Positions 1 through 47,647 of a stretch of 47,647 bases of DNA are shown piece by piece (within the stretch, counting starts at the first letter, position 1; every line of letters begins with the position of its first letter). Source of the stretch: Shigella phage Sf12. The notes under the pieces were generated by a model that did no database searches, had not been told where the DNA came from, and was given only the letters and a program-made list of their open reading frames with translations. The stretch lies in the sequence record MF158039; one strand, given 5' to 3'. The position numbers were made by a program, and so were the translations under genes.

Positions 1-257
1 ATATATATATATTAAGGACTTATGGCGTAAGTCATGGCGTAGCTTGGCGTACCTCGCGTAACGATGGCGGCTCAGCTTACATCGCGCTACTGAGGTTACG
101 TGTATATGAAGGAAAAGGCCATGGCGAGCGATAAAACCAACCAACTAGTTGATACACTCCCCTTCATTCCATCCATCCATCAACCATTGCTCAATTCGCA
201 ACAGTCCAGAAAATCATTGCAATCGATGCAATATTGCTATACATGCAATAGTACTGT
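1..257. repeat. Terminal direct repeat, left copy (identical to 47391..47647); true length may be longer because the window ends inside it
   Basis: Exact identity of window start and end read directly; repeat period 47,390 bp. Confidence 0.9.
24..70. repeat. Five GGCGTA-type direct repeats phased at about 10 bp inside the terminal repeat
   Basis: GGCGTA at 24, 36, 46, (G)CGTA at 56, GGCGG at 66; one helical turn apart. Confidence 0.7.
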
Positions 258-1478: not shown

Positions 1479-3062
1479 ATGTTTGATTTTAACGAAGATA
1501 AGTTATCAGTAGAACAGGTAATGTCTGTAGCTGCAGCTGAGAATCTGCCACCTTTACGAGTTGCTATTAATGCAAATGGCTATCGCCAGAGCGCTTCATT
1601 CTGGAAAGCTCCTGTTGAGATTGATTCAACTGGTGATAAATATCCGGTCATTTCACTTGGAAATGATTGTGATGTCGTTGGTAAGTTATCAAGCAATATC
1701 GCACGCTCAGTTCAGTTCCCTGAGTCATCTGCTTATATGCATTTTCTTGGCTGCATATCAGCAGCAATGCTTGGTCGCTTCACTGTTGAATACCATGGAA
1801 CTCAGCAGCCTACATCCCTGTACGTCGTGACCAGTCAGCCACCATCAACTGGTAAATCTGCTATTAACTCATTATCAATCGCGCCAATGATTGCAGAGAC
1901 TGAACGACTGAATGAATTACGCAAGCGCGACCGTAAGAAGATTATGGCCAAATTGTCAGCGCTAGCCAAAGAGATGAAGCAGGAGAAGTCACCATCAGAG
2001 ATGGCTGGATTATTCGAAGAGAAAGAGGAACTGGAGGAGAAGTTAGAAAAGCTGTGTGACATTGTTTTTCCGGTGTCCGATACCACGCCTGAAGGCCTTG
2101 CTCGAATCAACAGTCGACAGGGTAACTTTTCAGTAATCTCCGATGAAGCAACTAGCGTGAACTCACTGTTAGGCATGACATATGGTGACGGCTCAAAGAA
2201 AACTAACAGCGAGCTGGTACTTAAAGCATGGGATGCTGGCAACGTATCTATCGCGCGTGCGAATGCAGAGAACAACATGAGCTTCATTGCCATGGGTTGT
2301 ATCTCGGTAATTGCGCAGGATGAAACAATCGTGGCCATCATGAATGCCGGCGCGCGTGGTATCGGTGTATCCGAACGTTTCTTGCTTGTGCGTGAAAAAT
2401 CATTCCTTGGTGAGCGTGTGTTCGTCGATGATGATGGCGAGTCAACATATGAACCAATTGATGGAGCTCTGAAGGCTGATTACTTCCGTCTGGTACATGA
2501 AATTATGAATGAGCAAGATGTTAAGCTGACTGTCAGCAATTCGGCAATGAAGCATCTCAATCGCGCGCGGCAGGAAATGGAGCCTCACCTTGCAGATGGC
2601 GGCAAATATTCACATACAATGCTGCGCGGCGCTTTGGGTAAAATGGATAAGCAGGTAATTCGACTTGCAGCAGTTCTTCACACTATCCGTAACTGGTTTA
2701 ACCCTAACGGCGGTAGTCCGCAGAAATCCAGAGAGATTGAACTGGAAACGATGCAGGAGGCTTTATTAATGTTTGAAGAGCTTAGTAAGACTTACTTGTC
2801 TTCCGCTAATGCTGCTGGTCACGCAGGTGATAATGCAGAGATGAATAAGCTAATTGATATCCTGATTAAGCAAGGCAAGAACAGCAAAGGAGTTGTAGGG
2901 TTGCGCTCACTTTATGAGGCTGCGCGTAAGGTTCGACCTTTTGAGGCTCAGACTGGCGTAATGGCTAAGATTAAAGACCATTTACTGCCGATGCTTGATG
3001 AGAAAAACTACACCTGCCTGATTGGTGATAAGGTTTACATTAATCCACGACTGCTGGGGTAA
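1479..3062 (+). CDS. P-loop NTPase-containing protein, 527 aa; N- and C-terminal segments are paralogous to 46060..46605
   Basis: Walker A-like QPPSTGKS; N-term MFDFNEDKL..NLPPLRVAINANGY and C-term KGVVGLRS..CLIGDKVYINPRLL shared with short paralog. Confidence 0.6.
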   Translation: MFDFNEDKLSVEQVMSVAAAENLPPLRVAINANGYRQSASFWKAPVEIDSTGDKYPVISLGNDCDVVGKLSSNIARSVQFPESSAYMHFLGCISAAMLGRFTVEYHGTQQPTSLYVVTSQPPSTGKSAINSLSIAPMIAETERLNELRKRDRKKIMAKLSALAKEMKQEKSPSEMAGLFEEKEELEEKLEKLCDIVFPVSDTTPEGLARINSRQGNFSVISDEATSVNSLLGMTYGDGSKKTNSELVLKAWDAGNVSIARANAENNMSFIAMGCISVIAQDETIVAIMNAGARGIGVSERFLLVREKSFLGERVFVDDDGESTYEPIDGALKADYFRLVHEIMNEQDVKLTVSNSAMKHLNRARQEMEPHLADGGKYSHTMLRGALGKMDKQVIRLAAVLHTIRNWFNPNGGSPQKSREIELETMQEALLMFEELSKTYLSSANAAGHAGDNAEMNKLIDILIKQGKNSKGVVGLRSLYEAARKVRPFEAQTGVMAKIKDHLLPMLDEKNYTCLIGDKVYINPRLLG

Positions 3063-5204: not shown

Positions 5205-5250
5205 AATATACGCCATCTTTTGATTTCTGTTTTAGCAATTCGTGCTATTT
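5205..5250 (-). promoter_or_regulatory. Junction cassette copy: palindrome (5233..5247) and -10-like TATATT (complement of 5205..5210)
   Basis: ttagcaattcgtgctattt; stop codon of HNH gene lies in the palindrome. Confidence 0.55.
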
Positions 5251-5703
5251 ACCGTGTCTTTCTGTGAAGCAATGATTTGACTCATAGAAGCTGACTGCTA
5301 GCGCCTTTGCCTCATCAAAACTATCAAATGTTCTATGAATCCTGTGATTGTCCTTTTGCAATTGAACTGTGTATTTACCCTTAGCTTTATTGTAAGAAAC
5401 TCCTGTTTGTCCTGTTTTGTTATCTTTTCTCATCGCTGCGTTTTTGCAGTTTACCAGCCTATCTACACATCTTAAGTTTTCTATTCTGTTGTCGTGCTTT
5501 ATTCCATTCAGGTGATCTATCTCCATACCTTTAGTTATCTCACCATTGTGCATTTCCCATATAACTCGGTGGGCAAAAGTCATTTTGTGACCAACCTTTG
5601 TTCTTACGTAGCCCCTTCTGTCAATATACCCAGCCACTGAATTTGTTGTCTTCCTGATTAGATTGCCTTTGTCGTATATGTAGTGTTTATTCCAATCTTC
5701 CAC
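5245..5703 (-). CDS. HNH homing endonuclease (HNH plus AP2-like C-terminal domain)
   Basis: EIDHLNGIKHDNRIENLRCV motif; paralogous to four other copies in the window. Confidence 0.8.
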   Translation of the reverse strand: MEDWNKHYIYDKGNLIRKTTNSVAGYIDRRGYVRTKVGHKMTFAHRVIWEMHNGEITKGMEIDHLNGIKHDNRIENLRCVDRLVNCKNAAMRKDNKTGQTGVSYNKAKGKYTVQLQKDNHRIHRTFDSFDEAKALAVSFYESNHCFTERHGK

Positions 5704-9051: not shown

Positions 9052-9550
9052 GGTACCCGATTTCTTTTTCTAAAGACTTCCTGGCTAACACTGCTGACTT
9101 CAAATCCACAAAGTAACCTATGTGCTTCTCCTTGCCGTTTATGTTTATGTAAGCTCTGAATTTCTGCTCTCTCTTGTTCCAGCTAACACCTGTAACCCCT
9201 GAAGTGTTGTCATTCCTTTTGCTTTGATTTTTTAAATTATCCTGCTTAGATACTAACCTTAGATTTTCAATCCTATTGTCATCTCTTATGTGGTTTATAT
9301 GGTCTATCTCCATTCCTTTAGGGATTTTGCCATTATAAATCTCCCATATTATCCTATGTGCAAGAAATGGTTTTTTATTTAAAATTATCTGAATGTATCC
9401 GATGTTTTTGGTTCCAGCCTCTTTGCCTGCATAGTTTCCATTCCATTGGGGCCTAACATCACCCCTCCATTTCCAAAACAACTTAAAATCATCACTTAAT
9501 GAAAAATAATCCAACCAATCAAAATTGCTTATTACTAATGACATCTTCAC
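9020..9550 (-). CDS. HNH homing endonuclease
   Basis: EIDHINHIRDDNRIENLRLV motif; overlaps both neighbours. Confidence 0.8.
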   Translation of the reverse strand: MKMSLVISNFDWLDYFSLSDDFKLFWKWRGDVRPQWNGNYAGKEAGTKNIGYIQIILNKKPFLAHRIIWEIYNGKIPKGMEIDHINHIRDDNRIENLRLVSKQDNLKNQSKRNDNTSGVTGVSWNKREQKFRAYININGKEKHIGYFVDLKSAVLARKSLEKEIGYHENHGAENER

Positions 9551-11546: not shown

Positions 11547-12029
11547 GTGATAAAAGTGACTGAAATTGATAAGCGTACTCTTAACGGTAATAATGGAACC
11601 ATCCGAACAGAAGATAAGAAACCACGTAAACGGCCTTCAGGTTACTATGTGTTAAAGGATGAAGTAAAGGCTGGGCTGAGGGCAAGACTTGAGATTGTTT
11701 TAGACTTCTACGGCAGCAAGGCGAATATGGCGAAGCAATTAAAGGTTACTCGCCAGGCTGTTGAGGAATGGTTTAATCGCGGCATGATGTCGGCACGTGG
11801 CGCCCAGCTTGCTCACAATCGATACAAGCGAACTGGCGAAGGCTTCCGCGCTACATTTTGTCGACCAGACTTGCAGTTTGACGGTAACGGCAAGCCGCTA
11901 ACTCTGCGTTGCAAAAAGCGCCACATGCTACGCGTGGTCACTGATGCAGAATTAGCCACCAAGCCCGAGTGTCGCTCGTGGCGCAAAATTAAAGCAGCTA
12001 ATGAAGCAGCACGAAAAGCTAAAGAGTAA
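11547..12029 (+). CDS. HTH DNA-binding protein, candidate regulator
   Basis: HTH-like KANMAKQLKVTRQAVEEWFNRG; GTG start; divergent from helicase. Confidence 0.5.
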   Translation: MIKVTEIDKRTLNGNNGTIRTEDKKPRKRPSGYYVLKDEVKAGLRARLEIVLDFYGSKANMAKQLKVTRQAVEEWFNRGMMSARGAQLAHNRYKRTGEGFRATFCRPDLQFDGNGKPLTLRCKKRHMLRVVTDAELATKPECRSWRKIKAANEAARKAKE

Positions 12030-17949: not shown

Positions 17950-18348
17950 TTAGTTGTATTGTTTAATGTTTTTTGATTCTTCAATTGCTTCGCAAGTCTC
18001 AATGAATCGATATGAGTCCTCAATGACTCCAATCATAGAGGTCTGTTCTTCAAGATAAACGTCGATAACAGTTATAGTGAAATCGTCAGCATTGATCTTA
18101 GCCAATTCAATCAAGCTATTAACTAGATTATTGGATTGCTCAAACTCACCCTTAACACTCTTTACAGTCGCAAGAACAAATCTGTAGCTTTCATCGTTGA
18201 AGTCTAGTGATTTTATGTATTCACTTGTCTTCGTCATTGATTCAATTCGGCTATTTTTCATCATGTAGCTTTTTGCTTTCTCTGTGTTCATTGTTTTATA
18301 TCTCATTTTTAGCAGCACCATTGCTGCCGATGAGTGCACTATACCCAA
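17950..18348 (-). CDS. Hypothetical protein (probable start at internal Met, about 113 aa)
   Basis: ORF track. Confidence 0.4.
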   Translation of the reverse strand: MGIVHSSAAMVLLKMRYKTMNTEKAKSYMMKNSRIESMTKTSEYIKSLDFNDESYRFVLATVKSVKGEFEQSNNLVNSLIELAKINADDFTITVIDVYLEEQTSMIGVIEDSYRFIETCEAIEESKNIKQYN

Positions 18349-18736
18349 TCAGTATGTATCCGTTTTGATTATTCGTGCTATTTTGTATATCGGTGTAAAC
18401 CTCACCTAAATACGTTTTGATGCTCCGTGCGCCGCATGGATGCTGAGTGTAACTCTTGTAACCAATGTATCCACCAATTTTGCACCCTATCTATATCTAT
18501 ATGCATTTCCTCCTTAACAGGAAATCAAACATAGTCTTTTAGAAAAACATACCAACATAGCAATAGAGAGTAGTTACACTATATACAAACAAATATAGTA
18601 ATAATAATAATTACTCTAAACCCTTATTATATAAGGATTTTATAGTGTAACTAATGCGTATCTGTGCGTAAAAAGCGTATACAATTTTCTGCGGATGAGA
18701 TTGTATACATCGAGTTACATCGGTTACGCGTATATC
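18349..18736. other. AT-rich non-coding control region between divergent operons; candidate origin/regulatory hub
   Basis: tatctatatctatatgcat, (TAA)n at 18598..18613, inverted repeat gtatacaat-N14-attgtatac (18670..18702). Confidence 0.5.
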
Positions 18737-18783
18737 AAATAGCACGATTTGCTAAAGACTCCCGCATCAGCCTTTGCTATAGT
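18737..18783 (+). promoter_or_regulatory. Junction cassette copy: palindrome (18740..18754), -10-like TATAGT (18778..18783)
   Basis: aaatagcacgatttgctaaag; 23-bp gap; leader ccatcgaaacgaaac. Confidence 0.55.
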
Positions 18784-18823
18784 TACTCCATCGAAACGAA
18801 ACATACTCACTAAGGAATACAAA

Positions 18824-18928
18824 ATGACTAACTTCGCAACCAACGTAATGGCCTTCACCTTCGGCGTAGCAACTACTGGTTTCTTCGTGTGGGTACTGCT
18901 GCTGGCTTCAAAATTTAACGGTTTCTAA
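18824..18928 (+). CDS. Small hydrophobic membrane peptide, 34 aa
   Basis: MTNFATNVMAFTFGVATTGFFVWVLLLASKFNGF; tightly coupled to lipoprotein gene. Confidence 0.45.
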   Translation: MTNFATNVMAFTFGVATTGFFVWVLLLASKFNGF

Positions 18929-18938
18929 GGTGAATAAG

Positions 18939-19160
18939 ATGAAAAAATTAATCGTTATCGCAGCAATGATGTTAGGTGGGTGCTCTACGATGCCAGAACG
19001 CACTTGTACGGCGACTTATGAGTCAGGCGGAATGAGTTACTCGGTTTATGTTTTTGGCACGCAGAAGCGCGGTGATGAGCTTTTACTTAGGGCTGGATAT
19101 CCATTCTCGTTCCAGTATGTCTCTGAGCGGAATTTTAAAGACCACGATTGCGGTGGTTGA
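18939..19160 (+). CDS. Small lipoprotein, candidate Cor/Llp-like superinfection-exclusion factor
   Basis: Signal peptide with lipobox MLGGC; convergent on distal tail-tip genes. Confidence 0.55.
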   Translation: MKKLIVIAAMMLGGCSTMPERTCTATYESGGMSYSVYVFGTQKRGDELLLRAGYPFSFQYVSERNFKDHDCGG

Positions 19161-25522: not shown

Positions 25523-25971
25523 TTAACCTTCTGAATTCATCTACAGCAATTGATGCTGATTCAAATGATTCATGACTTCCTAAGCTGTATTTCTTCCCAT
25601 TGAAGACAACGCTTGCCCTGTAGTTATTTCTGTCCTTTCTAAATGTGACCCCACTTTCACCGGTTGTATTTCTCTTATTCATTTTCATGTTTTTTTTGAT
25701 TTTCAGAGTGACTAACAATCCTTAAATTTTCTACCCTATTGTCGGACCTCGAACCGTTTATGTGATCTATCTCCATACCTTCTGGTATATCACCGTTGTG
25801 CATTTCCCAAACAATCCTATGCACGTAATGATAACTTCCTTTAGCACCAACCCTCAAGTATCCTCCGCTACGCAAAGAACCCGCTAAAGATCCTATTACT
25901 ATATTTCTGTTTGTCTTCTTATTCCAGTAAAGCTTGCCATCTCTGTATTCAAAAATTTCATTCCAGTTCAT
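25494..25971 (-). pseudogene. HNH homing endonuclease split into two ORFs by a frameshift at a T8 homopolymer (25690..25697)
   Basis: ORF 25675..25971 carries the HNH motif EIDHINGSRSDNRVENLRIV; ORF 25494..25718 carries the C-terminal domain. Confidence 0.6.
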
Positions 25972-34680: not shown

Positions 34681-36156
34681 CTATGCGAGAGGTTCGCTTA
34701 AGTTTTCCACCTTATAAGCGTAAACGCCAGCCAAGGCATCGGATGAGTTCCTTATGCCAACTATTGTAAGCTTGAAGCATTTAGAGTCAGCTGTAGCTCC
34801 TGGTGATGTGGTTACGTAGTGCTCAGATGTGACTCCAAAAACTCCTGGCTTGAACACGCTATTCCAAAGAGCAGTCCCAGGAGGCATGCTTGTTACTATC
34901 GCTGTGTAGTTTTTCAACTTATCAGCTGCAACTGTAGTGAGTGAGTCAATCTGGTATGCAGTGTGCCTTATTGAAGCGATGTTTGATGTACCGGTATTAC
35001 TAACACCAACCCACAGCCCCTTAGCGGCAACTGTCGCATTCTTCTCTCCGGTAAGAGCGAACCTTATTGTTGTCTCTCCAGGTATATCTATAAAGTCAGT
35101 ATCCGTCTGATTGATCAACCCTGACCTTACGCCTGAAGCTACGTTATAAGAGGCTGGACCAGCCACCCCCTGTAAGCCCTGAGGTCCCGTAGGGCCCTGC
35201 AATCCACGCTCACCCTGCGGGCCTGCCGGGCCTTGTGGTCCAACTGCACCAGCTACACCTTGTAAGCCTTGCGGGCCAGCTGGGCCTTGCTCACCTTGCA
35301 GGCCCCTCTCGCCTTGTGGGCCTTGAATACCTGCCGGACCTGTCGGGCCAGTTGGGCCTGCTGGACCAGCGGAACCCTGTGGGCCTGGAGCACCCTGTGC
35401 GGCCAGTAACTCCCAGGAATCGCTAACATCTGGATTTTCTCCGGTCACGGCGGCGGTAGCAAACCAGCTTGAGTTATTGAATGTAACAACGTCATCTTTA
35501 ACGTAAGCTGTCGCTGCGTCGTACATCCCGCGGAATGTTAAGCCTGCCGGACCAACTGGGCCCGCATCACCTTTATCACCTTTAGGGCCAGCAGGACCTG
35601 CTGCGCCAGTTGCACCGATAGGGCCTTGCGGACCAGCCTCGCCAGTTTCACCTTGAGGACCTTGCGGGCCTACGGGGCCAGCTGGACCAGTTTCGCCTTT
35701 AGCACCTGCCGCGCCTGCCGGGCCGGTAGCACCTGTTGGGCCTTGAGGACCCTGTGGACCAATAGCTCCTGCCGGGCCCGCTGGACCCTGTGGACCAACC
35801 GGACCTTGTGGGCCTGCTTCACCTGAGCCTCCTTCTTCATCACTTACAAAATCACCTTTCGCCAGCGCTGAAAGATAAGCACCATCTTCGAAGTGGGCAT
35901 TGCCAAACCTGCGCCAGCCCTGGGCTAGATATCTGTTAACCCTGTTAACTAATCCCTGAATTGTGGTATCGGATGTCACCATGAAGTCTTCAACGTTGTT
36001 TGCTGTTCCCTTCGCCATCTTCATGCCAAAGAGGGTGCCGCTCAGCATCTGCACGTCGCCATATGGCTGGAATCCTGATGAAATCATCATTTTTACGTTT
36101 CTGGCTAAGATTTCAGGTGAATTCCCTACTGCCATAGCAATTTCTGTGTAAGCCAT
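34681..36156 (-). CDS. Collagen-like triple-helix repeat protein (fiber-like structural protein)
   Basis: Two long Gly-X-Y tracts, e.g. [34 protein letters not shown]. Confidence 0.8.
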
Positions 36157-43467: not shown

Positions 43468-43543
43468 TGGTGTTCCGCGCTGGACTCGAACCAGCAACTG
43501 AGACTTAGGAGGTCTCTGCGTTATCCTGTTACGCCAGCAGAAC
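43468..43543 (-). tRNA. tRNA-Arg (anticodon CCU, decodes AGG)
   Basis: Hand-folded cloverleaf: acceptor GTTCTGC/GCGGAAC, D stem GCGT/ACGC with GG in loop, anticodon stem GAGAC/GTCTC loop CTCCTAA, T arm GCTGG-TTCGAGT-CCAGC, encoded CCA. Confidence 0.85.
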
Positions 43544-44350: not shown

Positions 44351-44820
44351 CCGTGATTATCATGAAATACGTATTTTAAGTTCGCTTCCTGCCTTGCCTT
44401 AATTGCCTCATTCATGTCGGAATAAGTTCCCAGGTGAATATCCTTTCCGGAGACTTTAATCTTTGCGGCCCACTTACCTGAAGCTTTGTGCCAGCCTACT
44501 CCAATGAAACCACTTAAGCTAGATGGTCTTATTGATTGGTTCCTCTGATTTCCTGCGTTTGTAACAAGCCTTAGGTTTTCAATCCTGTTATCTTTCCTAT
44601 TATGGTTTATGTGATCAATCATCATACCTTCGGGCTTTTCCCTACCATGCATGAACCAAACTATATTGTGCACAAGTGCGGTTCCGTCTATGAAATGTCA
44701 CTGCAGATAACCTTTAGAATCAGGACTTCCAGTAACTCGTCCATTTGACAATCTGGTTATCGTTCCATCTTTATTATAGCTAAAGTGGCATTTTATATAC
44801 TCTTTATTTCTCACTACCAT
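44344..44820 (-). pseudogene. HNH homing endonuclease interrupted by an in-frame TGA (complement of 44698..44700)
   Basis: Hand translation MVVRNKEY...SKGYLQ*HFIDGTALVHNIVWFMHG...IDHINHNRKDNRIENLRLV aligns across the stop with intact paralogs. Confidence 0.6.
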
Positions 44821-46019: not shown

Positions 46020-46066
46020 ATCATAGCTGACTACCCGATTTATTGTTTAGCAATTCGTGCTATTTA
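46020..46066 (-). promoter_or_regulatory. Junction cassette copy: palindrome (46048..46062), -10-like TATGAT (complement of 46020..46025)
   Basis: ttgtttagcaattcgtgctattta; 22-bp gap. Confidence 0.55.
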
Positions 46067-46605
46067 CCAGTCAGGGGATATTTCTTCTTCCTCTTAAGCC
46101 TCTCGATCTGCTCATCAATAGCCTTGATAGTAATCTCGTCAACAATCTTCTCGCAATCCTCGATGTTGAAGTCATCTTCCAGTGGCTTAACCTTGTAAGT
46201 CCAGTCCTGGTCGCCATCCAGCAGTCTAGGGTTGATGTAAATCTTATCGCCGATTAGACATGTATAACAAAGTTTATCCAGGCTTGGGATGATGACGTCC
46301 TTAATCTCCCGCATCACTCCACTCCGACCTTCGAATGGCTTAACTTTACGTGCCGACTCATATATTGACCTAAGGCCAACGACACCTTTACTGTTCATGC
46401 CCTGTTTAATGAGGATATCTATAGCCTTTAATGTGTCACGGTTAAGCTCAAAATCTTTCACCGCAGAAAGCTCTGGCCAGTAGTCCAGAGACTGCTTATA
46501 TCCGTTAGCATTGATTGCCACTCGCAACGGCGGCAAATTGTCTGCCGACGCTATCAACAACACTTGTTCGCTAGTTAGCTTATCTTCGTTGAAATCAAAC
46601 ATCAT
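46060..46605 (-). CDS. Short paralog (181 aa) of the 527-aa P-loop protein, lacking the central ATPase segment
   Basis: MMFDFNEDKLTSEQV..NLPPLRVAINANGY and KGVVGLRSIYESARKVKPFE..CLIGDKIYINPRLL match 1479..3062 ends. Confidence 0.6.
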   Translation of the reverse strand: MMFDFNEDKLTSEQVLLIASADNLPPLRVAINANGYKQSLDYWPELSAVKDFELNRDTLKAIDILIKQGMNSKGVVGLRSIYESARKVKPFEGRSGVMREIKDVIIPSLDKLCYTCLIGDKIYINPRLLDGDQDWTYKVKPLEDDFNIEDCEKIVDEITIKAIDEQIERLKRKKKYPLTGK

Positions 46606-47112: not shown

Positions 47113-47141
47113 ATCATATACCGACTTACGCATGTAGTCAA
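47113..47141 (-). promoter_or_regulatory. Consensus-like sigma70 promoter (TTGACT-17 bp-TATGAT) reading leftward from the right end
   Basis: Minus strand cTTGACTacatgcgtaagtcggtaTATGATttactcaacttaaacgagaggagatATG. Confidence 0.55.
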
Positions 47142-47331
47142 GCGTAATTCTTGGTAAATTTTAGGGGGTCTTACGCCAAATGGCACCTTAGCTCAGTCAT
47201 GGCTTAATGTAGTTCGTGGTAACGCCTGTAACGAAGCAAATGGTCGGTTAGACCCCCGCACTGTCGTAATGTGTCCATAGATAGCAATTATGTATTCTGA
47301 TAGGAAAAAACACACAGATACCCGTGGAACC

Positions 47332-47380
47332 CCAGTTACACTAGTTACATACAATAATATTAATAATAATAATAATAATA
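47332..47380. repeat. AGTTACACTA plus (TAA)n low-complexity element, also present at 18572..18613
   Basis: agttacactagttacatacaataatattaataataataataataata versus agttacactatatacaaacaaatatagtaataataataatta. Confidence 0.6.
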
Positions 47381-47390
47381 GAAAGAAGAT

Positions 47391-47647
47391 ATATATATAT
47401 ATTAAGGACTTATGGCGTAAGTCATGGCGTAGCTTGGCGTACCTCGCGTAACGATGGCGGCTCAGCTTACATCGCGCTACTGAGGTTACGTGTATATGAA
47501 GGAAAAGGCCATGGCGAGCGATAAAACCAACCAACTAGTTGATACACTCCCCTTCATTCCATCCATCCATCAACCATTGCTCAATTCGCAACAGTCCAGA
47601 AAATCATTGCAATCGATGCAATATTGCTATACATGCAATAGTACTGT
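47391..47647. repeat. Terminal direct repeat, right copy (identical to 1..257)
   Basis: Exact identity read directly. Confidence 0.9.

Follow-up and report, generated by a model that had tools for sequence, protein, structure and literature searches.

Paired AT-rich repeat modules in the early control regions of Shigella phage Sf12 and other Drexlerviridae as candidate replication origins

Two copies of one module in the Sf12 genome

Shigella phage Sf12 (sequence record MF158039; the window referred to here is the whole stretch analysed, 47,647 nucleotides) is a T1-like siphophage of the Drexlerviridae, and the locus of interest, region A (18349-18823), lies between two divergent sets of genes in a part of the genome where the phage is nearest to the Rogunavirinae Sd1, AHP42, Rogue1 and phiEB49. 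On the left side of region A are a leftward regulator-like gene and, farther along, the genes for exonuclease VIII, Erf and the single-stranded DNA-binding protein (SSB); on its right side are a rightward 34-codon membrane open reading frame (ORF; 18824-18928) and then the cor lipoprotein gene (18930-19160). As a first-pass annotation made from the letters alone had stated, the region is AT-rich (65% AT compared with 55.7% genome-wide), contains tatcta repeats, and separates leftward from rightward genes. The same annotation described a 45-bp element recurring near the right end of the genome and proposed that both sites are a common DNA-binding target, such as an origin, a host nucleoid-protein site, or a packaging enhancer. 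The second site, termed B, is also divergent once the record is circularized, with a leftward operon running from 47087 and a rightward operon from 371 that carries a DUF3987 helicase gene.

The similarity between the two sites is real, with 40 nucleotides (18572-18611 and 47334-47373) that are 85% identical, and it is not the likeness expected of any two AT-rich sequences. The local alignment of A with B scores 64, compared with 22.2±2.6 for dinucleotide shuffles (maximum 36 of 500) and 23.3±3.2 for shuffles of 30-bp blocks that keep the AT tract, and even the right flank alone, with the AT tract excluded, scores 33 compared with 15±2.3 (maximum 28 of 1000 shuffles). The proposed length of 45 bp is too short, as about 170 bp can be aligned (18572-18739 with 47334-47500; 121/177 identical), and the order and orientation of short sites run in parallel over about 300 bp in the two copies, which are accordingly defined here as module A (18447-18739) and module B (47217-47500).

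Both modules are built from the same short sites in the same order. A pair of (G/T)GTAAC sites 9 bp apart is followed, after about 115-125 bp, by one or two oppositely oriented GTTACAY sites, then by a 60-bp AT tract containing (TAA)n and (TA)n, four direct G(C/T)GTA sites, and an inverted-plus-direct pair, GGTTACGYGTAT. In A and B alike, the sites are oppositely oriented across the AT tract and phased at 9-12 bp. Sites of the general type G(C/T)GTAA(C)/GTTACRY number 10 in A and 10-13 in B; the pentamer GCGTA occurs nine times in the two modules where 0.63 are expected (p ~2e-8), and AGTTACA five times where 0.06 are expected. The AT tract of module A is bracketed by a 12-bp inverted repeat, AGTTACACTATA (18572-18583) and TATAGTGTAACT (18644-18655), that was missed in the first-pass annotation, whereas the 9-bp inverted repeat that it did report is present as described but perfect only in the Rogunavirinae, with the left arm reading gtatatcat in other lineages. 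The coordinates of these and the other features discussed below are collected in Table 1.

Other aspects of the initial description require revision. Region A had been taken to be free of ORFs, but a minus-strand ORF of 34 codons with a strong Shine-Dalgarno sequence, AAGGAGG, runs from 18506 to 18402, and its homologue is annotated as the coding sequence AHP42_28. Bases 1-257 of the record are identical to 47391-47647 and form a 257-bp terminal repeat, which may represent either real fixed ends or an assembly overlap; because of this duplication, the unique Sf12 genome comes to 47,390 bp. Site B had been placed just inside the right terminal repeat, but it begins just outside and then extends into it, the repeat starting at 47391 within the (TA)n of the B tract and ending at the T1-type end point. 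Because copy B runs into the terminal repeat, its (TA)n and four GCGTA repeats also occur at positions 1-61. Proximity to a terminus reflects the point at which the record was opened and is not a property common to both copies.

Table 1. Positions of the modules' sites, neighbouring promoter-like elements, and candidate binding proteins in the Sf12 window
Feature	Position	Strand	Observation
Left-end duplicate of the right half of B: (TA)n, four GCGTA, GGTTACGTGTAT	1..110		1-257 identical to 47391-47647
DUF3987 helicase (T1 gp9 homologue), candidate self-loading initiator	1479..3062	+	Modelled MCM-like fold with C-terminal winged helix; operon rightward from B
Cro/YdaS-like helix-turn-helix protein (T1 gp23 homologue), alternative candidate binder	11547..12029	+	Homologue in L024 lies between AT tract and helicase
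Leftward promoter-like family repeat (degenerate 21-nt direct repeat ATAGCACgaaTaatCAA + TATAGT)	18321..18383	-	ATAGCAC at 18381(-); family D3, 9 minus-strand copies
34-codon ORF with AAGGAGG ribosome-binding site	18402..18506	-	Translation; AHP42_28 homologue; tatcta repeats are its 5' coding end
GTGTAAC / TTGTAAC pair, 9 bp apart, distal left sites of A	18447..18462	+	Matching pair in B at 47217-47232
AGTTACACTATA, inverted-orientation site and left arm of the 12-bp inverted repeat	18572..18583		GTAGTTACA invariant in 9 aligned A modules
AT tract of A, 83% AT, (TAA)4	18584..18643		Second AT-richest 60-bp window of the genome; peak 18574, 50/60 AT, z 3.9
Four phased direct G(C/T)GTA, starts 18645, 18656, 18666, 18675 (spacing 11, 10, 9)	18644..18681	+	First is the right arm TATAGTGTAACT
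9-bp inverted repeat gtatacaat-N14-attgtatac	18670..18702		Perfect only in Rogunavirinae
AGTTACATCGGTTACGCGTATA: two inverted sites and one direct site (palindromic TACGCGTA)	18713..18734		Right limit of A/B homology
Rightward promoter-like direct-repeat element (AAATAGCACGATTTGCTAAAGAC ... TATAGT ... CATCGAAACGAA)	18735..18805	+	Precedes ORF 18824-18928 and cor 18930-19160; family-wide matches
181-aa protein Sf12_gp74 (phrog_7327), candidate competitor or regulator	46060..46605	-	Operon leftward from B
TTGACT-17-TATGAT near-consensus sigma-70 promoter of the leftward operon	47113..47147	-	10/12 consensus matches; equivalent of TLS promoter P01
TGGTAAC / CTGTAAC pair, 9 bp apart, distal left sites of B	47217..47232	+	Site map
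AGTTACAC + TAGTTACAT, two inverted-orientation sites at left edge of AT tract	47334..47350		Repeat family D8, site map
AT tract of B, 88% AT, (TAA)7 + (TA)8	47351..47410		AT-richest 60-bp window of the genome; peak 47345, 55/60 AT, z 5.0
Four phased direct GCGTA, starts 47415, 47427, 47437, 47446 (spacing 12, 10, 9)	47415..47452	+	Site map
GGTTACGTGTATATGA, inverted + direct site	47485..47500		Right limit of A/B homology

Conservation across the Drexlerviridae and candidate binding proteins

The modules were compared across nine complete genomes, taken as whole GenBank records because protein-anchored searches of IMG/VR gave few loci, and representing at least five lineages of the Drexlerviridae: Sf12, T1, TLS, Rtp, DTL, T145P1, 12397V, Msk, and the Klebsiella webervirus cp45. 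All nine reach their two highest AT contents per 60-bp window at the equivalents of A and B (z 3.9-5.5; in T1 at about 30.0 kb and about 0.2 kb), with the A equivalent upstream of the recE-erf-ssb operon and the B equivalent between the small-gene early operon and the pac/helicase side. The likeness between A and B is significant in all nine genomes, with alignment scores of 63-150 compared with at most 48 for shuffles. In cp45 an AT core of 46 bp is identical between the two sites but inversely oriented, an inversion that includes the recE operon.

The motif that flanks the AT tract is specific to each lineage, yet common to A and B within any one genome. It is GCGTAA(C)/GTTACA in Sf12 and DTL, GTGAAC in TLS, and GCGTAA plus GTGTATATC and TTCCGCGGAA in the Braunvirinae, while T1 has TGTTACAC, GGCGTAAT and GTGTTAAT; in cp45, 14 of the 25 genome copies of GTAAGA (GGTAAGAT) fall within the four flanks (p ~1e-21). 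Among the nine aligned A modules, the repeats, including three GCGTA of the direct array, and several flank blocks are invariant, and the AT core varies in both sequence and length. The larger interval 18311-18835 is a conserved island, 91-93% identical in phages whose neighbouring genes show no match, and Sf12 itself pairs an A module of Rogunavirus type with a B module of TH21 type.

These comparisons lend good support to the proposal of a DNA-binding target common to both sites, as the modules are paralogous in all nine genomes and carry the same short-motif arrays. Because the flanking motif differs between phages of one host, the protein that reads it is most likely encoded by the phage. 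By the same token, a site for a host nucleoid protein or a host initiator is an unlikely main target, given the three different motifs of Sf12, T1 and TLS, all of which infect E. coli. An exact IHF core (TATCAACCTTTTA; TATCAACCATTTA in Msk B) occurs in the tract only in the Braunvirinae, where it lies inside the module A tract at five loci (L015, L016, L017, L020 and L022) and in the B tract of three of these phages, in genomes that hold 3-4 such cores each; it is absent from the AT tracts of Sf12, T1, TLS and cp45. DnaA-like boxes (at most one mismatch) occur at background frequency, clusters of GATC are not enriched, and neither Sf12 module contains a single GATC.

Two phage proteins are candidates for the binding role. 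The helicase encoded in the operon rightward from B gave no match in a sequence search against the PDB at E<=1, and comparison of modelled folds was therefore used instead; the predicted structure is MCM-like and ends in a C-terminal winged-helix domain (residues about 436-527). Helicase activity with 5'->3' movement has been shown experimentally for a relative with the same DUF3987 domain (PMC11724360). The alternative candidate is the Cro/YdaS-like homologue of T1 gp23. Both the winged helix of the helicase and the recognition helix of gp23 vary between motif lineages, so that co-variation cannot choose between them. The leftward operon from B provides a further protein of interest, the 181-residue product Sf12_gp74, in which the N-terminal 42 residues of the helicase (74% identical) are joined to its last 91 residues, the winged-helix domain (62% identical), without the ATPase core. 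This protein is found in Sf12 and DTL and partially in Msk, and is absent from T1, TLS, cp45, Rtp and T145P1.

A more distant association comes from three phage contigs outside the Drexlerviridae (L024, L025 and L026) whose DUF3987 helicases are 34-38% identical to that of Sf12. In each, the AT-richest tract of an 18-21-kb locus lies in a divergent gap directly upstream of the helicase operon and is flanked by its own short motif: CCCCCA in L024 (9059-9681; 9 of the locus's 10 copies, most of them oppositely oriented across the tract), CTTACA in L025 (9202-9760; 10 of 21 copies, beside a (CAA)13 tract), and CTTACCG in L026 (8512-9200; 3 of 6 copies). In these contigs a single tract stands before a single operon of helicase, primase, superfamily 2 helicase, RecE-like nuclease and SSB genes, whereas in the Drexlerviridae the helicase-to-SSB gene set is split, with one module before each part.

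Candidate functions of the modules

Among the three functions first proposed, an origin is the best fit to the architecture of the modules and to their association with the helicase, as judged from sequence. The reading put forward here, tentatively and with belief and doubt close to balance, is that A and B are paired helicase-loading replication origins embedded in early control regions. From the layout of the sites we infer that a sequence-specific phage protein would bind the short repeats on both sides of the AT tract, with the C-terminal winged helix of the MCM-like DUF3987 helicase as the likeliest binder and the Cro-like gp23 protein as the alternative; that the AT tract would melt between the bound arrays; and that the helicase would then load together with the phage primase and host polymerase, in the way in which the Rep protein of a Staphylococcus aureus pathogenicity island (SaPI) acts at its origins. 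An inverted motif pair, CTTACGC (47125) and GCGTAAT (47142), flanks the -35 element and spacer of the near-consensus promoter 47113-47141 and has the look of an operator, through which the same protein could also regulate the adjacent early operon. A broader joint proposal is possible but more speculative: phages with DUF3987 helicases, including the T1-like phages, would start replication at SaPI-like origins, each an AT microsatellite tract with oppositely oriented short iterons read by the helicase's own winged helix; the Drexlerviridae would have kept two such origins, one joined to the control region of each half of what was once a single replication-recombination operon; and some of them, including Sf12, would encode a regulator of origin use that consists of the winged helix only.

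A different explanation for the same features is that the modules act in transcription alone, as early promoter/operator regions that arose by duplication and serve the replication and recombination operons; in them the AT tract would supply divergent promoters or UP-like DNA for host RNA polymerase and the repeats would be operators that time early genes, most plausibly bound by gp23. This explanation is somewhat doubtful, although several observations speak in its favour. The modules lie directly upstream of, or divergently between, early replication and recombination operons, where promoters and operators are expected, and a duplicated promoter/operator region accounts for two copies equally well. 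Module polarity relative to the recE operon is kept even in the inverted block of cp45, whose palindromic GTAAGATnnATCTTAC sites resemble operators for a dimeric helix-turn-helix protein, and the inverted pair at B overlaps the promoter 47141-47113. Overlapping divergent promoters inside the AT tract are reported by consensus scans in Sf12 and by the annotators of ETEP102 and AHP42, and the 34-codon ORF 18506-18402 needs a promoter within the tract. The variation of the gp23 recognition helix with motif lineage and the position of a gp23-like gene between tract and helicase in L024 would suit gp23 as the regulator, and the single tract before a single replication-recombination operon in the distant phages suggests that a control region was duplicated when that operon was split.

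Further complicating the case for origins, the putative recognition helix of the helicase's winged helix is not notably basic, and for this reason its DNA binding remains a candidate property; many winged-helix domains bind only proteins. Lineage-wise change of the motif is expected with any phage-encoded binder and does not single out the helicase. The SaPI origin is found just downstream of rep, while the nearest module here lies upstream of the helicase gene, by about 1-2 kb. GC skew, which had been suggested as a check, gives no independent origin signal: the cumulative skew follows the coding strand and is uninformative in this respect, with a minimum at B, where transcription diverges and so produces it, and no inflection at A.

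Other observations favour origins over a purely transcriptional role. The operons flanking B have promoter elements of their own outside the module (TTGACT-17-TATGAT at 47141-47113 and a direct-repeat element at 297-342), and the curated sigma-70 promoters P01 and P51 of TLS are about 230-300 bp from the AT tracts; with separate promoters 200-300 bp away, the tract is not needed to explain the transcription of those operons. Promoter hits within the tract are no commoner than in shuffled sequence (3 compared with 3.2 expected). The number and phasing of the sites exceed what Cro-type operators need: 10-13 sites per module, four of them direct and phased, together with 60-150 bp of nearly pure AT microsatellite, go beyond known operators of this type.

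Two explanations that involve neither initiation nor early transcription are less probable. The modules could lack any specific protein-directed function, as recombination linkers or mosaic junctions conserved through homologous exchange between phages and between A and B, or as tracts for H-NS, IHF or Fis. The module is indeed a conserved island between swapped flanking genes, Sf12 itself joins A and B modules of different types, and the idiosyncratic AT-core text common to A and B of one genome suggests gene conversion; for a host nucleoid tract, the IHF cores of the Braunvirinae can be cited. Exchange, however, explains why similarity is kept but not why AT extremes occur at both sites in every lineage, and it leaves unexplained the phased, oriented, lineage-specific repeats that are invariant while the AT core drifts; nor is the IHF core found in the tracts of Sf12, T1, TLS and cp45. 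Such an explanation is improbable. Still more so, to the point of being very improbable, is a packaging role in which the arrays would bind the terminase small subunit as a pac site or enhancer and A would be a secondary packaging start. Phased short repeats occur in some pac sites, such as those of SPP1 and P1. The records of T1, Rtp and TLS are opened at or near pac, and the Sf12 point that corresponds by homology to their position 1 is about 200-250 bp away from module B; the terminal repeat of Sf12, moreover, has its start within the (TA)n of B. Only B is near the T1-type genome end, however, and the pac-proximal ATTGCAAT segment (216-290), about 85% conserved across subfamilies, adjoins B and is not common to A, and these two facts make the packaging enhancer of the first proposal unlikely. 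Module A is 18.6 kb away and coincides with a terminus in none of the records, the tract stays beside the helicase operon in the distant phages, and T1-like packaging series are said to begin at one pac site (PMC11447400). The segment 216-290 itself, the first part of which equals 47606-47647, is non-coding and carries repeated ATTGCAAT and ATGCAAT motifs; because the terminal redundancy of T1 starts at position 1 of its record, and this position is within about 8 bp of the homologue of the Sf12 right end, this segment is a candidate pac region.

Region A also resembles other parts of the genome, and this resemblance is a separate matter from the modules. A 21-nt intergenic direct repeat, aaATAGCACnnnTTGnTAAAA, has been described for TLS with its function listed as an open question (PMC11447400). 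In Sf12 the repeat ATAGCACnnnTTGnTAA has 11 strict copies, at 298, 1402 and 18739 on the plus strand and at 5248, 7238, 8654, 11542, 27147, 44347, 45030 and 46063 on the minus strand; about 18 nt beyond each copy come a TATAGT-like hexamer and a conserved CATCGAAACGAA leader. The copy at 18739(+) and a degenerate copy at 18381(-) account for the similarity of region A to other genome parts; the former is 85 nt upstream of the ATG at 18824 and oriented with transcription, and the family element is typically about 76 nt upstream of a start codon. Genomes carry 11-18 copies of this repeat upstream of genes, but only two of the AGTTACAC/(TAA)n/GCGTA module. The repeat and leader at 18726-18807 match, with the orientation of transcription and at about 80% identity, intergenic DNA of 176-181-kb T4-like Cronobacter and Enterobacter phages (for example L027, 1201-1277, which is Cronobacter phage leE, NC_048646, 10153-10229), and seem from these matches to be a promoter cassette common to unrelated phage families. 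Interpretation of the element as a T4 MotA box was rejected on a position count, the TGCT core lying about 10 bp farther upstream of the -10 element than it would in such a box.

Searches for structured RNA gave no Rfam match (at the gathering and E<=1 thresholds), and the folding of the right flanks is unexceptional relative to shuffles (z -1.39 and 0.06), so that a structured RNA finds no support; an apparent compensatory hairpin between A and B proved on inspection to be out of register. Elsewhere in the window, four paralogous 94-nt stretches, 63-78% identical and located in minus-strand ORFs (5471-5564, 9258-9351, 25721-25814 and 44570-44663), are probably scattered HNH homing-endonuclease genes, as in T1 and Rtp. 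Periodic 9-nt repeats (GGnCCn...) at 35138-35814, in the minus-strand ORF 34681-36156, encode collagen-like Gly-X-Y in a 491-residue protein of the structural region. A tRNA gene at 43471-43543 on the minus strand (Rfam, 58 bits) adjoins the small terminase gene, where relatives carry an arginyl tRNA.

Comparison with known systems

T1 belongs to the seven classical T phages and is notorious as a contaminant of laboratories and fermentations. Papers on its family found neither an origin nor iterons (PMC11447400, PMC7718038), and searches of the literature available to the analysis revealed no description of a T1 origin, of transcription start sites, or of paired modules. The analysis supplies two precise candidate sites across the family, the repeat motif for each lineage, and two named candidate binders; with sites, motifs and binders defined, the question of a T1-like origin becomes directly testable. 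If the modules do load the helicase, the logic of an origin served by a self-loading MCM-like helicase would extend from the SaPIs to many virulent enterobacterial phages, and the modules would offer cis elements for engineering or blocking T1-like phages. If their role is purely transcriptional, they would still define the early regulatory switch of the family.

Systems with two distant cis sites, in which the same initiator-binding repeats lie beside AT-rich DNA, are known from Bacillus phage SPP1 (oriL and oriR) and from satellite phage P4 (ori and crr). Their initiators (SPP1 G38P and the C-terminal domain of P4 alpha) and types of repeat are unlike those of the Sf12 modules, and the P4 crr has no unwinding function of its own, whereas A and B in Sf12 are both complete modules. 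The T1-like primase is annotated as P4 alpha-like, which adds a point of resemblance to P4.

Iteron plasmids such as pSC101, P1 and F, with their autoregulated rep promoters, offer another comparison. The direct repeats beside an AT tract, the inverted pair over a promoter (47125/47142), and the IHF core within the tract of some lineages are reminiscent of them. Plasmid iterons, however, are 17-22 bp long and spaced at about 22 bp, compared with repeats of 5-7 bp spaced at 9-12 bp in Sf12, and the plasmids need DnaA boxes, whereas DnaA-like boxes are not enriched in the Sf12 modules. An origin of iteron-plasmid or lambda type was rejected on these grounds, with the background level of DnaA-like boxes, the lack of GATC, and the intergenic position of both modules (the lambda iterons lie within the initiator gene) adding to the short length of the repeats.

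The closest known layout to the Sf12 modules, by analogy of architecture, is the origin of the SaPI Rep protein. There, 6-12 penta- or hexanucleotide iterons are divided between the two sides of a central AT-rich region and point in opposite directions; a self-loading AAA+ helicase binds them through its C-terminal winged helix, melts the tract, and loads itself (PMC9371898). The Sf12 modules likewise have repeats of 5-7 nt in arrays of about 6-13 with a lineage-specific sequence, an AT-rich centre that splits the repeats, and opposite orientation on the two sides in both A and B, and the partner helicase is predicted by structure modelling to be an AAA+/MCM-like protein with a C-terminal winged helix. 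The differences are also substantial. No sequence similarity is detectable between the helicases; movement is 5'->3' in the DUF3987 relative but given as 3'->5' for SaPI Rep (PMC9371898); and the SaPI origin is single and immediately downstream of rep, whereas Sf12 has a copy 1-2 kb upstream of the helicase gene and a second at a distance of 18.6 kb, each within an early control region. Thus, although short iterons flanking an AT tract and served by a self-loading helicase are a known kind of element, no variant is known in which virulent enterobacterial phages with a DUF3987 MCM-like helicase carry two such elements in each genome, both merged with early control regions.

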